Shown here: positions 12,001-21,000 of the stretch, piece by piece
Layout: each line of letters opens with the position of its first letter
Position numbering within the stretch: position 1 is the first letter of the stretch
From: an uncultured Gemmatimonadales bacterium
Lineage (GTDB): Bacteria; Gemmatimonadota; Gemmatimonadetes; Gemmatimonadales; JACORV01
Direction: 5' to 3'
Assembly (NCBI GenBank): GCA_963718005.1
Contig: CAVQXV010000002.1
Location: forward strand, 163,974 to 227,973
DNA: 64,000 nucleotides
Made by a program: the position numbers

Positions 12001-15000
12001 GTACAGCAGCCGGCCGAATTCCGGGGAGCCGATGCAGGCCTTCGCCGCCAGATGCATCCGCATGTACGGGAACTGGTTGTTCACGACCACCACGCGACGC
12101 GCGCGCTCGGCCGCGGCGATGATGGCATCGGCGTCGGCCAGGTCCGGGGCCAGGGGCTTCTCGCAGAACACGTGGCAGCCGGCGGCGAGCGCCAGCAGGG
12201 TGTGCTCGCGGTGCAGGGCCGGCGGGGTGCATACCGCCACGAGGTCGGGCTTCGTCTTCTCGAGCAGCTCGGCCGGCTCAGCGGTGACGACGGGCAGGCC
12301 GCGTCCCGCCGCGGCGGCGCGGGCCGCGGGATCGGGATCGCATCCGCCGACGACCGCCAGCCGCTCGCGCAGCTGCGCGTACGCCGGCAGGTGGATGTGC
12401 TGTGTCACGGCCCCGAGGCCGATGACGGCCAGTCGCTTCACGTTGCTCTCCATCGCTCTGCGATCGGAACCATGAGGTCGAGATAGCGCTGCGTGACCAG
12501 GCGCCAGTCGTAGCGCTGCGGCGCGTCGCGGGCCCTCGCTCGCCATCCGCGCGCGCCGCTGCGGATCGTTCAGCACGGTCCAGATGCCTTCGACCAGCGT
12601 CTCTACTCGCGCATCGGGCAGCAGGTGCGCGACCCCACCGGCGAACTCCGGGAAGGCGGTGTTGTCGAGCGCGATCACCGGCGTGCCACAGGCCATCGCC
12701 TCGAGGACCGGCATGCCGAAACCCTCGTACGAGGAGGGGTAGACGACCAGGTCGGCCGCACCGTAGACCAGCGGCATCTCCTCGTGGGTGACGTACCCGC
12801 GCACGACGATCTGCGCCTCGAGGCCGAGCTCGGCGATGACGCGCCGGAACGGCGAGGTGCCCGGAAGGTCCGCGCCCGCGATCAGGAGCTTGTGCGGCAA
12901 GCCGCGCTCCGACTTCAGGCGCGCGAACGCGCGGATGAGGGCCGACAGGTTGCGGCGCTCGGTGGGCTTGCCGACGTACGCGATGCAGGGACCGTCCGCG
13001 CCGAGCGCGCCGGCGCGCCAGGCGGCGAGGCGGTGCCCGTCGGCGATCGGCCGGAAGCGGGCGGTGTCCACACCCTCCGGCACCACGTGGATGCGCTCCG
13101 GCGGCAGGTGGTAAAAGCGCACCATGTCGCGCCGGCTGTACTCGCTCACGGTCGAGACGCCGGTCGCCCGCCAGGCGCTGAGAGCGTACGCGACGCGTGC
13201 CTTGTTGAGCGTCCACCAGTCGAAGGCCTGAGGATAGCCTTCATACGAGCCGTGGTGAATGAGGAACGTGGGGCAGCGGGCGGCGAGCGGCACGACGTAA
13301 CTCGGGCACAGCAGCAGTCCGGAGCGCGCGTGGGCCCTGGGCAGGGCGACCTGCTCCCACCACGCGAGCGGCAGCCGCGAGTGGACGACCACGCTCGTAG
13401 CATTGGCCGGCAGGCGGATGTCCGCGGGCAGCGGCGTCGGCGTGTAGACGCGGATCTCGGTGAACGGATGCTCCAGCTCGCCGAGCCAGTGCAGCAGCGC
13501 CTCGATGCAGCGCGCCACGCCCGACCGGGCGACGACGAGGCGGATCCCGTTCACTCCGAGGATCATGCGGCCGGCTCCGGAGCGCCCGGGCGCCGCGCCA
13601 CGGCAAGCAGCGCGGGGAAGACGAGGATCACGAGCGATCGAACCAGCGGCATGCGCCGCACCAGGCCATACGCGCGGGCGGCCGCGCGCTGCGTCGGCCC
13701 GGCGCGCTCGAGATCGGCGGCGCCGACAGAGCCGGGAGGTGGAACCGGCAGGCGGCGCAGGCCCGCGGCCCGGAATCCGCGCGCCAGCTCGAAACGCGAC
13801 AGCAGGTGCTTCTTCTCGTAGGCGAGGCCGCGGCGCCAGCGGACATAGGCCGGCATCCACCGTCGCGGCAGGAACCCCACGCCCCACACGCCGCACGTGC
13901 GGCTCGCGGGCGAGCGAGAAGCGGTTCGACGTCCACACCAGCACGCGCCCGGCGGGCCGCTGCACGCGGGCGAATTCGGCCAGCGCGGCCGGCGCGCTCG
14001 GCAGGTGCTCCAGCAGGGCGACGGAGGTCACCGTGTCGAAGGTGCCGTCGGCGAACGGCAAGTGGTCGGCGCAGCCGCACACGAGATTGGCCGGGCAGGC
14101 CGGCTTCCTCGAGGCCGCGCCGCGCCACGATCAGCCAGCGGAAACCGACATCGACGCCCACCGCGGTGCGGAATTGCCGCTGCGCCACGCGCACCAGCAC
14201 GCCGGCGCCGCAGCCGACATCGAGGAGCCGTTCGCCCGTGCCGAGCAGGTCTCGATAGCTCGCGATGCGCGAATCGTCGGTGAGGACGTGATGGACGAAG
14301 CGGCGGCTCAAGTCGGGCGGCGTATCCGGATAGGTGGGCAAGCGTCCAGTAGTAGGCGACGAGTTCCGCGAAACTCAGCCGCTCGGCCTCCCGCTGCAGC
14401 TTCTCCCCCTTGCGATAGTCGTCGGCGAGCGGGATCAGGGGGTCCGGATAGAGGCGGAAGTCCGGGATGCCGAGGACGACCGGGTAGTCGCGCGCGCAGC
14501 GCGGGCACCGATACCGCTCGGGGCCGGCTTCGAGCTCGCCGCGGCAGATCGGGCAGCGGAGCCAGAGCCGGGAGATCCGAGGCCGGCGCGCGCGTGGAAG
14601 ACTCCAAGGGTCGCCCTCGACAGGTTCACGACGTCACGCAGCGACGGTGGGGAATCTCGTGGCCGGAAACCTGACACCTGGGGCCGCGAGACACAACGGT
14701 CACGCGCCAGTCGCGTGGCGCGGCCGGCCCGTGCTACTTTTCCCCCTCCCGAATGACCGGAGTCCGACCTGAGCAACCTCGTGTTCCTGACCGGCGGTTT
14801 CTCGTCGGGTAGCACGCTCCTGTTCACCCTGTTCCGGAAGGCCGGGGAGTTCTACTGTCTCTACGAGCCGTTGCACGAGCGGCTGCAGGAGCGATCTGTA
14901 CGGCGGCCTCCGGGTCTACGAGCACCACTACTACGTCGAGGACTACTTCAAGGAATACCGCGGTTTCAGCGCCATTCCGCGACTCCACGACGCCCGCTGG

Positions 15001-18000: not shown

Positions 18001-21000
18001 GGCCTGCCGGTGGCCGTACTCGGCGTGCTGCTGGTCGTACTCGTGGCGCCGCTGGTGCTGCCGGACCGCCTCGCCGCACGGCGGAACCTGGTGGACAACG
18101 TTCGCGAGTTCGTCGTCAACATGGCGGTGGTTCCGGAGCGGGCCGCTCGACGGCCAGACGCGTCGAGGCGGCCGGACTGCGTCATCTGCAGGGCGTGTTC
18201 CTGGTCGAGATCGAGCGAGCGGGACAGCTCATCGCGCCGGTCACGCCCGCCACGGAACTGAGGGGCGACGACCGACTCGCGTTCGTCGGCCGCGTGGACC
18301 AGGTCGTGGACCTCCAGGGGATGCGCGGACTGGTCTCGGCGGAACGCGCGCATCTCGCGCCGTTCGATACGGCGCACCACACGTTCCTGGAAGCGGTCGT
18401 GGGCGCCGCGTCTCCGCTGCTCGGCCGGACCCTCGCCGAAGCGGAGTTCCGTGAGCGCTACCAGGCGGCGGTGGTGGCCATTCACCGCGCCGGGCAGCGG
18501 GTGGGGGAGAAGCTGGGGCAGGTGCGCCTGAAGGTGGGTGACACGCTGCTGCTGCTGGCCGATCCCGGATTCGCCGAGCGGTGGCGGGACCGCAACGATT
18601 TTCTCGTGGTATCGCGGCTCGGCGGTGCGCCGCCGTCGAGCAGCGGCAAGGCCGTGCTCGTTGCGGGCATCACGCTGGCCATCGTGGCCGTGAACGTCCT
18701 CGGCCTGATGCCGCTGCTCGAGGCGTCGCTGCTCGGAGCCATCGCGCTGGTGGCGCTCGGCGTGCTCTCGCCCCGCGAGGCACGCTCGGCCGTCGACCTC
18801 GACGTGATCGTGATGATCGCTGCTTCGTTCGCGCTGGCGGCGGCCATCGAGCGCTCGGGGCTCGGCGCCCGCATCGCGGCCTCGCTCGTCACGGGCCTGG
18901 GCGGACTCGGCACTACCGGCGTACTGCTTGGAGTGCTGCTCGCGGCCCTGGCCTTCAACACCTTCGTCAATCCCGGACGCCACGGCGGTCCTGGTCTTTC
19001 CCATCGCGATGTCGGCTGCGGCCGCGCTGGGCGTGAACCCGCGGCCCTTCGCCCTCGCCCTCGCCGTGATGGCGCCGTTGTCGTTCCTGACGCCGGTGGG
19101 CTACGCCTGCAACACGATGGTGTACGGCCCTGGCGGGTATCGTTTCGGCGACTACGCGCGACTCGGGGTTCCGCTCACGGTCCTCGCCCTCGCCGTCGTG
19201 CTCGTCGCGGTCCGGGTGCTGTGGCCGGTGTAGCGGAGTGAGCGAGCGCACGCCTCCGACCTCGAGCGCATCGCCGCGGCCCTGGAGCGCGCGCGGCGAG
19301 GTGCTCGCGCCGATCCTCGGCCGCGCCGTGCGGGTAGATCACAAGGCCGGCGGCGATCCTGTGACCGAGGCGGATCGCGCCGTGGACGCGGCGTTACGTG
19401 AGACCCTGCTCCGCCCGGGCGAGGGATGGCTCTCGGAGGAAACGGCCGACGATCCGGCGCGACTCGCGGCCGCCCGCGTGTGGATCGTGGATCCCCTCGA
19501 CGGCACGCGCGAGTTCGTGGCCGGCATACCGGAATGGTGCGTCTCGGTGGGCCTGGTGGAGCATGGCGAGCCGGTGGCGGGGGGAATCCTCAACCCGATG
19601 ACGGGCGAGCTGGTGCTCGGGGCCCAGGGCGCTGGCGTGACCAGGAACGGTGAGACGGTGCGGCTGGAGCCGCGCCCGGAGCTGCGCGGTGCGGCGGTGC
19701 TGGCGAGCCGGAGCGAGGCCCAGCGCGGCGAGTGGAAGCGGTTCGACGGCGCGCCCTTCGCCGTCCGCGCCGTCGGATCGGTGGCCTACAAGCTGGCGCT
19801 CGTCGCGGCCGGACTCGCCGATGCGACCTGGACGCTGGTGCCCAAGCACGAGTGGGACGTGGCGGCGGGCGTGGCGCTGGTGCTCGCGGCGGGCGGGGAA
19901 GTGTGCACGCCCGACGGCGCCAGCCGTGTTCAATCGGCCGGATCCCTGCTGCCCGGACTGGTCGCCGCCCGGCCGGGGCTGATGCCCGCGCTCACCTCGT
20001 TCTTGGCTTGGGCGGCCGCTTGACGAACCAGCGGCGGTAGAAGAGGTCGGCGACGAGCCGGCTGCGGGGCAGGCGTGCGAGGCCCGGAACGCGACGCAAG
20101 ATGCCAGCAGCCGGCCCTTCTGGATGCCGGCGCCGCCCAGGATCGCGCCGGCGCGGACGGTGGCAAGCGCCGCCGCGCCGCGCCGAGGTCCGCCTGGATG
20201 TAGTGGTCACGGCGATGCGGAGCCGATCCTCGGCGCGATGCCCCTCGTGGGCGGCCAGCGCGTCGGGGTTGCGCGAGCCGCCGGTCTCCCTCGGTCCAGG
20301 TAGCGGTCGAGGATCATGAAGTGCTCTTCTTCGGCGTCGTCCGCAGGTGGTGGTGCTTCTGGGACGCGTTGCCGTGGAAGTGCCGGTAGCGCATCAAGTG
20401 TCCTCGATCAGAAGCCCCAGCGGATGACCTTCGCGAATGCGCAGCCACATGTCCAGGTCGGAGCCGATCCCGTACTCCACGTCCCGATACGGGCCGAGCT
20501 CGCGGTACGCCGTCGCGCGCACCATCGCGCTGGGGCAAACCAAGAAGCGATTGCTCGTGGCGGAGAATCCGTTGAGCACGGTGTAGTAGGCAGGCGCGAG
20601 CGTCCGCGGAACTCGGGCGGCAGGCGCAGGCGGTCGTACTCGCGGCCTTCGGCGTCGATGAAAATGTCCAGACAGAACACGGCGCCCGCTTCCGGGTGGC
20701 GGCAGAGAAGTCCGCCTCGCGCTCGACGATCGTCGGTTCGTAGACGTCGTCGGCGTGATAGACCGCGATGAACTCGCCGCGTGACGCGGCGACGCCGTCG
20801 TTCGCGTTTCCGTAGATGCCGCGGTTCGCCTTCTGACGGATGACGCGGATCCGGTCGCCGTACGAAGCCAGGATGGCCGGCGTCTCGTCGGTGGAGGCAT
20901 CGTCGAAGACGAGGATCTCGACGTTGGGGTAGGTCTGGCGCAGCAGCGAGTCGAGGCTCTCGCGCAGGTGGGCCGCCCCGTTGTATACGGGGACGACGAT

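Follow-up and report, generated by a model that had tools for sequence, protein, structure and literature searches.

Organisation of the sulfation module

The DNA analysed here, referred to as the window, is a 64,000-nucleotide stretch from an uncultured Gemmatimonadales bacterium (GenBank assembly GCA_963718005.1, contig CAVQXV010000002.1, positions 163,974 to 227,973 of the forward strand), and all coordinates are given as positions within it. Four neighbouring plus-strand genes, encoding a sulfotransferase, a fused ATP sulfurylase and adenosine 5'-phosphosulfate (APS) kinase (Sat-CysC), an SLC13/DASS permease and a CysQ-like phosphatase, were analysed as a candidate module for sulfating a glycan with 3'-phosphoadenosine 5'-phosphosulfate (PAPS). 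A preliminary description of the locus had reported four consecutive, tightly packed genes, and these were found at the coordinates it gave. The listing of open reading frames (ORFs) and the GC content at third codon positions revealed an unbroken plus-strand coding run with repeated frame switches from 14.7 to 20.0 kb, in a window whose GC content is 62-77%.

The sulfotransferase gene (14769 or 14781 to 15670) was delimited by frameshift-aware alignment, Pfam and homologues and carries PF13469 (Sulfotransfer_3). Sat-CysC (15714-17450), with PUA_2, ATP-sulfurylase and APS kinase domains, was delimited by Pfam, NF004040 and alignment to a homologue from locus L026. The SLC13/DASS-type anion permease (17464-19233), a putative sulfate importer with two cytoplasmic TrkA_C domains, was assigned from Pfam, homologues and linkage, and the inositol-monophosphatase (IMPase)-family phosphatase (19238-20023), an intact ORF and putative phosphatase for 3'-phosphoadenosine 5'-phosphate (PAP), from the Inositol_P profile and linkage. 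The Sat-CysC stop codon (17448-17450) precedes the permease ATG at 17464, and the permease stop codon (19231-19233) precedes the GTG at 19238 that opens the phosphatase gene. Because the four genes share one direction and are separated by gaps of 4-44 nt, and because no terminator-like site was detected inside the module, in a scan that also found no promoter there, they would form a single co-transcribed operon, divergent from a glycan-assembly operon. Profile searches with Pfam and NCBIfam upheld the four functional assignments of the preliminary description at the level of family, and every motif that it quoted was found in the translations.

The module is preceded by a divergent intergenic region (14575-14768, no strand assigned), classed as non-coding by a Viterbi coding model and presumed to bear promoters, which separates the minus-strand methyltransferase operon from the plus-strand sulfation operon. 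The promoter scan found no sigma-70 consensus in this region and Rfam gave no match there, nor did an Rfam search of the entire window detect a riboswitch or other RNA. A GGAG ribosome-binding site lies 6 nt ahead of position 14769.

Sulfotransferase

The reading frame of the sulfotransferase was repaired by frameshift-aware alignment of three homologous proteins (P0001, P0002 and P0004) to the DNA. Repair of nine frame breaks (14895, 15010, 15263, 15408, 15502, 15531, 15589, 15632 and 15657), eight of which are single extra bases, yielded a protein of approximately 293-297 residues that is free of in-frame stop codons. It starts either at CTG 14769, where most homologues have an ATG (MSNLVF...), or at GTG 14781, and ends at a TGA at about 15668-15670. 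The preliminary description had named a failure of the repaired protein against sulfotransferase profiles as grounds for abandoning the assignment. When this search was run, PF13469, which scored 23 bits on the raw fragment, scored 43.2 bits on the repaired protein against a threshold of 27 bits, with profile positions 3-208 of 216 covered. A search with the stitched protein returned 215 proteins at E <= 0.001, the closest being intact and 85% identical over 93% of the query; PF13469 was present in all 120 of the 215 that were listed, nearly all of them approximately 295-300 residues long.

Every invariant column of the family is retained in the repaired protein, as assessed in an alignment of 75 sequences in which E29, H32, R135 and S143 are invariant. 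R135 and S143, with their R-x7-S spacing, would constitute the 3'-phosphate-binding motif and E29 or H32 the acidic or histidine catalytic residue after strand 2, an equivalence to tyrosylprotein sulfotransferase (TPST) read from the alignment and not from structural superposition. The structure modelled was that of P0001, which is 85% identical to the window protein; in this model (pLDDT 92) the PAPS loop, G-G-F-S-S-G-S-T-L-L, lies between strand 1 and helix 1. Almost all of the PDB fold matches listed by Foldseek are PAPS-dependent sulfotransferases, including TPST, the mycobacterial enzymes Stf1 and Stf9 and the natural-product sulfotransferases CurM and Teg12. The model thus predicts a sulfotransferase fold, and PAPS-dependent sulfuryl transfer is the predicted activity.

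A profile search of the whole library gave 152 representatives at E <= 1e-30, among which the full-length proteins of approximately 300 residues were represented by essentially one 50%-identity representative, followed by a much weaker second tier. The full-length proteins appear to constitute a single 50%-identity cluster and a tightly conserved orthologue group, with identities of 46-86% across metagenome-assembled genomes labelled Chloroflexota, Acidobacteriota, Gemmatimonadota, Binatia and Actinomycetota, among others.

Sat-CysC and its junction with the sulfotransferase

Sat-CysC matched the Pfam families PUA_2, ATP-sulfurylase and APS_kinase and, after repair, scored 941.2 bits on the NF004040 equivalog (cut-off 669) over profile positions 6-570 of 572. 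Its frame as given is not continuous, as alignment with the homologue from L026 places breaks at about 15780 and about 16193, which were judged to be technical. All of the catalytic motifs are present in the translation, namely HxxH (HRAHQ), GRDHAG, the kinase P-loop GxxGxGKS/T, DGD and NxRR (INIRRIG). Family membership is clear, and ATP sulfurylase and APS kinase activity is predicted from it.

The preliminary description had taken the string TGATG to link the sulfotransferase stop codon to the Sat start codon. The string is literally present at 15652-15656; in the repaired frame, however, it encodes Leu-Met of the sulfotransferase C-terminal helix (...RVRLDRLMRGSN-stop in the alignment of P0001, P0002 and P0004), the repaired C terminus reading R-L-M-R-G-S-N-stop. 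The real stop codon lies at about 15668-15670 and Sat-CysC starts approximately 44 nt further on, behind an AGGAGAG ribosome-binding site (AGGAGAG, 5 nt, CTG GCT GAC AGC CTG ATC). The same arrangement was found in a related contig, L001, where the sulfotransferase ends ...GRLMRGSK-TAG and a spacer of approximately 40 nt, containing a GGAGAG ribosome-binding site, leads to the Sat-CysC N terminus (T)LADSLIAPH. The link is a frame artefact, and translational coupling by stop/start overlap was rejected, as the string lies inside the repaired sulfotransferase coding sequence according to the three homologues and the comparison with L001.

In L001 there is no in-frame ATG, GTG or TTG between the upstream in-frame stop codon and the LIAPH of Sat-CysC, and the sole in-frame ATG upstream of LIAPH in the window is that of TGATG, within the sulfotransferase coding sequence. 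Because neither sequence offers a usable upstream start codon of these kinds, Sat-CysC probably starts at the CTG at 15714-15716, which aligns with the Met of the Pyrinomonadales homologue. A CTG occupies the position of the homologues' ATG start in both genes (14769-14771 in the sulfotransferase and 15714-15716 in Sat-CysC), in each case 5-6 nt past the GGAG or AGGAGAG and with the same arrangement in L001, and both CTG codons may be initiation codons.

Permease and phosphatase

The permease scored 209.9 bits on CitMHS and 66.8 bits on Na_sulph_symp. Two TrkA_C stretches scored 24 and 43 bits, and the intact homologue P0131 has two passing stretches. Homologues numbered 2881, many of them named SLC13 family permease in Gemmatimonadota; homologues of 58-65% identity occur on many contigs, and the gene also occurs alone. 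The phosphatase, whose ORF is free of frame breaks, matched Inositol_P (PF00459) at 177.6 bits. Its PDB matches comprise 37 chains, all of the IMPase superfamily, the best being IMPase/SuhB structures at 73-92 bits, and several homologues of 61-68% identity are named CysQ by NCBI.

Frame breaks

As the sequence stands the module contains 14 frame breaks, comprising the nine in the sulfotransferase, the two in Sat-CysC and three in the permease (18133, 18161 and 18972, all single extra bases, mapped against P0131), with none in the phosphatase. Codon-usage Viterbi segmentation placed approximately 83 within-gene frame changes across the window (about 1.3 per kb) in genes of all kinds, of which 64 were net +1 and 19 net -1. 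Loads similar in absolute number to that of the sulfotransferase were observed elsewhere, for example at 25.1-26.8, 41.9-43.1 and 58.3-60.6 kb, and almost no frame changes were observed at 44-56 kb, where the GC content is 62-69%. Contig L001, an intact relative from another sample, is 91.8% identical at the DNA level over window positions 12606-15740, and all three of its genes in this range are intact. Compared with L001, 32 bases are added and 10 are lost in the window, with approximately half of the added bases lying outside any homopolymer. The ratio of non-synonymous to synonymous substitution rates (dN/dS) against L001, calculated free of indels, was 0.10 for the sulfotransferase, 0.18 for the methyltransferase and 0.14 for the family 4 glycosyltransferase (GT4).

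Bacterial pseudogenes display a deletion bias, and insertion-rich indels are typical of an uncorrected long-read consensus. Because the breaks are window-wide, biased towards insertions and rare at lower GC content, and because L001 is intact, the dN/dS of the sulfotransferase is 0.10 and its invariant residues are kept, the most likely source of the breaks is the erroneous insertion of bases in the assembly, in a pattern that looks like composition-dependent indel error of a long-read assembly, and the organism's own genes are probably intact. The sulfotransferase had previously been described as the most heavily broken gene of the module, with at least four breaks. Its rank was borne out and its breaks had been under-counted, nine having been found; however, nothing in this is special to the sulfotransferase, as the breaks are window-wide and look technical, and its breakage says nothing about its biology. 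Programmed or real frameshifting in the sulfotransferase was rejected on the grounds that the breaks are window-wide and insertion-biased, that a close relative is intact and that dN/dS is 0.10. With approximately 1.3 frame-shifting indels per kb, readings of pseudogenes or of stop/start overlaps in this sequence need to be checked against intact relatives, and interpretation of the window at ORF level has to be preceded by frame repair.

A separate observation from the comparison with L001 is that dS climbs stepwise over adjacent genes, from 0.06 in the GT4 gene to 0.18 in the methyltransferase gene and 0.48 in the sulfotransferase gene, with dN/dS at 0.10-0.18 throughout, a pattern that hints at recombination with a boundary close to the divergent promoter.

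Distribution of the PAPS cassette

Eighty-two loci with permease homologues, comprising 80 metagenome contigs and two genome loci, were examined for the PAPS cassette of Sat-CysC, permease and CysQ-like phosphatase. A full Sat-CysC was adjacent at 6 of the 12 evaluable loci with a permease identity of at least 55%, at 2 of 12 with an identity of 45-55% and at 0 of 25 below 45%, and a CysQ-like gene lay within 2.5 kb at 9 of 19, 5 of 19 and 1 of 39 loci, respectively. It is chiefly on this linkage, graded with permease identity, that the assignment of the permease and the phosphatase to PAPS metabolism is based. The window order Sat-CysC, permease, phosphatase was repeated on five contigs. Orthologues of the phosphatase (54-63% identity) directly follow a permease that itself follows Sat-CysC in L040, L045, L048 and L064, and in L068 the orthologue follows the permease, upstream of which the contig breaks off without a further gene.

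Besides the window, three Gemmatimonadota-type loci had usable flanks, and in all four the cassette adjoins polysaccharide genes. In the Gemmatimonadota genome CP070722 (L029) it is followed by Bac_transf, family 2 glycosyltransferase (GT2), GT4, two Sulfotransfer_1 genes and a Wzx flippase gene; in the Gemmatimonadales genome BPIV01000001 (L030) it lies amid Wzz, Poly_export, DegT and Polysacc_synt_2 genes; and in the related contig L033, whose arrangement resembles that of CP070722, a Bac_transf gene and a MurJ/Polysacc_synt_3-type flippase gene come next. The cassettes of L029 and L030 resemble that of the window in that Sat-CysC is 82% identical and the permeases are 60-63% identical, and L029 also has an Inositol_P gene. 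They differ from it in gene order, the phosphatase being first in L029 and absent from L030, and in their sulfotransferases, those of L029 belonging to Sulfotransfer_1 (PF00685) and not to PF13469, with no sulfotransferase gene seen within 10 kb in L030.

The window's gene order was also found in L045 and L064, amid 2-oxoacid dehydrogenase, transketolase, lipoyl synthase and methylmalonyl-CoA mutase genes and with no glycan genes nearby, and in L048 the cassette follows PALP-family and SerA-like genes. By this distribution the cassette reads as a mobile sulfate-activation unit. The PAPS supply had been called dedicated; this was unsupported, because the same cassette also lies amid central-metabolism genes in other lineages and 64 kb of sequence cannot show dedication.

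Sulfotransferase loci in other lineages

The sulfotransferase was found in four annotated loci, from Pyrinomonadales (L026), Gemmatimonadales (L028), Chloroflexota (L027) and a metagenome contig (L003). GT2, GT10, GT4 and epimerase genes lie beside it in all four, and radical S-adenosylmethionine (SAM), methyltransferase, Gfo/Idh/MocA and Wzx genes each in some, with a recognised Wzx in two. Relatives of the sulfotransferase therefore lie in similar glycan loci of other phyla, which bears out the glycan setting proposed for it. GT10, which accompanies the sulfotransferase in 4/4 annotated loci, is a fucosyltransferase-like family. PAPS genes are nearby in two of the four loci: in L026 a Sat-CysC only 56% identical to that of the window directly follows the sulfotransferase, and in L003 there are CysDN and CysC genes. 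The idea that the sulfotransferase always travels with PAPS genes was rejected on the basis of a survey of 22 sulfotransferase loci from genomes, only one of which has Sat-CysC within 10 kb.

Proposed function and alternative explanations

The interpretation starts from the family membership and catalytic motifs of the sulfotransferase and Sat-CysC, the operon-like packing of the four genes and their conserved synteny and linkage. We consider it likely that the four genes, which lie within a very large exopolysaccharide (EPS) region, make PAPS, use it to sulfate a glycan and recycle the PAP that is left, and that the genes themselves are probably intact. In the proposed scheme the SLC13/DASS permease would import sulfate, and Sat-CysC, whose family is established, would convert sulfate and 2 ATP via APS to PAPS. 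The neighbouring GT2 and GT4 enzymes would build an undecaprenyl-linked repeat unit in the cytoplasm, and, before Wzx flips this unit, the sulfotransferase would place a sulfuryl group donated by PAPS on one of its sugars, as the synteny suggests. The IMPase-family phosphatase would hydrolyse the inhibitory PAP to AMP, a role to which the conserved linkage points. The product would be a sulfated polysaccharide, probably also methylated.

Several observations weigh against this reading. Each of its steps beyond family assignment is one that we infer from sequence. At the position of the Arg/Lys of the PAPS loop all aligned members of the sulfotransferase family have Ser or Cys, giving F-S/C-S-G-S-T in place of the canonical R-S-G-T-T. 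The Foldseek TM-scores, normalised to the query, were 0.23-0.44, so that there is no close solved structure for the sulfotransferase, and a sequence-profile search of the PDB with its family returned nothing at E <= 0.01. The presence of Sat-CysC within 10 kb in only 1/22 genome loci indicates that the PAPS cassette is a unit distinct from the sulfotransferase, the two being joined only in some cases. The attribution of the frame breaks to assembly error is indirect and drawn from sequence comparison.

The permease scored 111.1 bits on the DASS subfamily profile TIGR00785, below its cut-off of 198.6, and four Asn/Thr-rich motifs are changed in the window protein (at 17782, 17917, 18966 and 19099), which reads FFHNMPIV, GTTSTLIVSG, FVNP|DATA and GYACNTM against the consensus NNTP, TSTN, TNNA and YQTN. 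Most of the 120 closest homologues keep the four-motif consensus, including P0131 and P0133, which are 79-81% identical; the total of deviations at invariant columns (14 of 191) is not unusual. Transport may have changed or been lost in this copy, or AAC-rich words may have been miscalled systematically. Of the sulfate uptake proposed for a DASS/SLC13 permease with two TrkA-C domains, the family and the TrkA_C domains therefore stand, whereas sulfate is a putative substrate, suggested by gene neighbourhood and by linkage to Sat-CysC, CysC and CysQ-like genes, in a protein with four deviating motifs. The phosphatase scored 125.6 bits on the CysQ profile TIGR01331 (cut-off 228.8), tied with HisN at 125.5 bits, also below its cut-off, and 79.4 bits on NF008182 (cut-off 379). 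PAP recycling by an IMPase/CysQ-family phosphatase can accordingly be kept as regards the IMPase family and is putative as regards CysQ: by sequence the enzyme is a generic family member, and its PAP specificity is suggested by conserved linkage.

Three other explanations were weighed. Sat-CysC, the permease and the phosphatase might be the general, and possibly the only, sulfate-activation operon for cysteine synthesis, with or without a part in sulfation. This is unlikely, though of some weight: the gene order recurs amid central-metabolism genes (L045 and L064) and after PALP-family and SerA-like genes (L048), permeases of this family abound in Gemmatimonadota and also occur singly, and most sulfotransferase loci have no PAPS genes nearby. 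However, the cassette borders polysaccharide genes in the window, L029, L030 and L033, in L029 beside sulfotransferases of another family; the adjacency of the sulfotransferase and Sat-CysC recurs in the Pyrinomonadales genome even though the Sat-CysC proteins are only 56% identical; and the scanned parts of the window yielded no homologue of cysH or of sulfite reductase. We regard it as improbable that the acceptor of the sulfotransferase is not an EPS repeat unit but a lipid or glycolipid, a small molecule or, by tyrosine sulfation, a secreted protein. GT2, GT10, GT4 and sugar-epimerase genes lie by it in all four annotated loci, with a recognised Wzx in two, and in the window it sits between Wzx, GT4 and methyltransferase genes and GT2 and radical SAM genes, with no polyketide, lipid or peptide-precursor genes adjacent. 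Such an acceptor would nevertheless be in keeping with PF13469, which also takes in tyrosylprotein and other non-carbohydrate sulfotransferases, with the fold matches to TPST, Stf1, Stf9, CurM and Teg12, with acceptor-binding residues that cannot be assigned, and with the XrtA/PEP-CTERM-type character of part of the window, a system that also handles secreted proteins.

Finally, it is highly improbable that the module is decaying, with real frameshifts and with the sulfotransferase, Sat-CysC and permease as pseudogenes. The fourteen breaks that the three genes show as the sequence stands, the highest break density of the module in the sulfotransferase region and the permease's differences at four otherwise conserved motifs are what decay might leave. 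Against this, the sulfotransferase has a dN/dS of 0.10, no in-frame stop codon once the indels are removed and all of its invariant residues; Sat-CysC reaches 941 bits after repair; breaks of the same type run across the genes of the window; and the 64 insertions against 19 deletions are the opposite of the deletion bias of pseudogenes. The lower-GC part at 44-56 kb, free or almost free of breaks, suggests a technical error dependent on composition.

If glycan sulfation by the module is correct, Gemmatimonadota, an abundant and little-cultured soil phylum, would make sulfated exopolysaccharides, as might some Acidobacteriota and Chloroflexota, to judge from the related loci. Sulfated polymers are strongly anionic and water-holding, with a bearing on soil aggregation, desiccation tolerance, metal binding and possible heparin-like biomaterials, and sulfotransferase, PAPS synthase, importer and PAP phosphatase together form a compact cassette that could be transferred to a production host. 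More tentatively, and with considerable doubt, the gene set that accompanies the sulfotransferase might make one specific, uncharacterised sulfated surface glycan, perhaps also methylated or deoxygenated, with a wide distribution among uncultured soil phyla; Gemmatimonadota would then repeatedly recruit the cassette to polysaccharide loci with unrelated sulfotransferase families, and sulfated EPS would be common in the phylum.

Comparison with known systems

The rhizobial NodP/NodQ and NodH proteins resemble the module in placing dedicated sulfate activation, independent of the housekeeping pathway, beside a PAPS-dependent sulfotransferase. NodPQ is, however, of the CysDN/CysC type, and the acceptor is a lipo-chitooligosaccharide signal and not a polymer. 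We know of no transporter or PAP phosphatase in this unit for Nod-factor sulfation.

In Vibrio sp. KMM 8419, whose sulfated capsule is structurally proven, PAPS genes and sulfotransferases lie in the polysaccharide cluster, an arrangement that was called a hallmark (PMC11641403). The likeness to the window is that additional copies of the PAPS-synthesis genes accompany the sulfotransferases in a cluster for polysaccharide synthesis. The Vibrio cluster differs in encoding a CysD/CysN-type ATP sulfurylase and a separate CysC, where the window has a homo-oligomeric-type Sat fused to CysC, and in Kps/ABC export, where the window has a Wzx flippase; it also belongs to another phylum and has different sulfotransferases (PMC11641403). 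The text of that paper contains no occurrence of permease or CysQ, whereas the window module has a permease and a CysQ-like gene. The synechan (xss) cluster of Synechocystis PCC 6803 is likewise described, in the part of the source consulted, as a polysaccharide cluster with sulfotransferases and a sulfated EPS product (PMC8205485); its sulfotransferases are cyanobacterial, and the likeness to the window is at the level of this description.

DASS-family sulfate permeases have been characterised in Rhodobacter capsulatus and other proteobacteria, where they import sulfate and related oxyanions (PMC5840216). The window permease resembles these at the level of the superfamily and differs from them in its score below the TIGR00785 cut-off and its altered Asn-rich motifs. 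CysQ of Mycobacterium tuberculosis (PDB ID: 5DJF), an IMPase-fold PAP phosphatase from an organism that sulfates with PAPS, matches the window phosphatase at 62 bits, so that the latter is closer to the IMPase/SuhB structures (73-92 bits).

Sulfated EPS had been described as uncommon in bacteria outside a few well-known cases. This rarity is weaker than was implied, given the hallmark status of the gene arrangement (PMC11641403), the existing use of PF13469 as a marker of sulfated-EPS potential in metagenome-assembled genomes (PMC9723792) and, from the part of the source consulted, the report of sulfated glycoconjugates as common in sludge EPS (PMC10483923). A full-text literature search combining Gemmatimonadota, sulfotransferase and polysaccharide found no relevant paper. 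The design is thus familiar from other bacteria, and it is the phylum, the fused Sat-CysC/SLC13/CysQ cassette and the sulfotransferase orthologue group that are uncharacterised.

Other genes of the window

Window genes around the module were annotated by tblastn with the annotated genes of L026, L028 and L003, and the Pfam labels are those of the source genes. The module is surrounded by glycosyltransferase, flippase, methyltransferase and radical SAM genes, which confirms that it is embedded in a polysaccharide locus, and by predicted function polysaccharide genes fill nearly the whole 64-kb window. On the minus strand upstream of the module lie genes for a methyltransferase (13574-14574, annotation transferred from the related loci), a GT4 (12514-13566, 70-74% identical to Gemmatimonadales and Pyrinomonadales genes), a Gfo/Idh/MocA oxidoreductase (11382-12435, 53-56% identity) and a Wzx-type flippase (9953-11252, 61-65% identity). 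A GT2 is also among these minus-strand glycan genes, and the set at 9953-14574 is syntenic with sulfotransferase-bearing loci in other phyla. Downstream, by tblastn synteny, a minus-strand GT2 gene (20010-21027) is convergent with the CysQ-like gene and is followed on the plus strand by genes for a B12-binding radical SAM protein (21263-22816, 72% identical to that of Gemmatimonadales L028 and 51% to that of Pyrinomonadales L026), an NAD-dependent epimerase (23008-23724) and a second Gfo/Idh/MocA oxidoreductase (23814-24772). GT10 gave no tblastn match in the window and seems to be absent here. No second sulfotransferase and no sulfatase were found among the other window genes scanned, which were part of the total.

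The radical SAM gene is intact and encodes 517 residues, and its orthologues accompany the sulfotransferase in Pyrinomonadales and Gemmatimonadales. Its matches to NCBIfam B12-radical-SAM profiles were all below cut-off, the nearest, AprD4 diol-dehydratase and HpnJ, being far below; the protein may have a role in sugar deoxygenation or C-methylation.

Farther downstream are XrtA/PEP-CTERM-type genes, a second flippase, two carbamoyltransferases and an MBOAT/ACP/SGNH set. The XrtA/PEP-CTERM-type EPS genes lie at 33691-35601, 40559-43137 and 58268-60611, and several are frame-broken. Among the proteins of this type the polysaccharide deacetylase passed TIGR03006 (300.3 bits, cut-off 276.2), and those below their cut-offs were a FemAB-like protein (TIGR03019, 201 against 260), an asparagine-synthase-type amidotransferase (TIGR03108, 560 against 817), an stp2-like GT4 glycosyltransferase (173 against 409) and an O-antigen-ligase-like protein (TIGR03097, 38 against 188).

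The lower-GC block at 44863-56050 is error-free. It encodes two similar NodU/CmcH-type carbamoyltransferases (44863-46692 and 51140-52969), a 773-residue protein (46955-49276) that lacks an NCBIfam match and carries an iron-containing redox domain of the Haem_oxygenas_2 type, an SxtJ-like small protein (50806-51138), an acyl-carrier-like ORF recognised from a reading of its translation only (53324-53558), a DltB-like MBOAT protein (53724-55166) and two SGNH/GDSL proteins. The block looks like a decoration module for O-carbamoylation and O-acylation and was possibly acquired horizontally.

Two secreted-looking proteins with tandem Ig-like repeats flank polysaccharide genes. One, at 38627-40418, has an Invasin_D3/Filamin-type match, and the translation of the other, at 62308-64000, repeats VTVTPNPASVVAGG...TATSEGQSGTAAVTV units.

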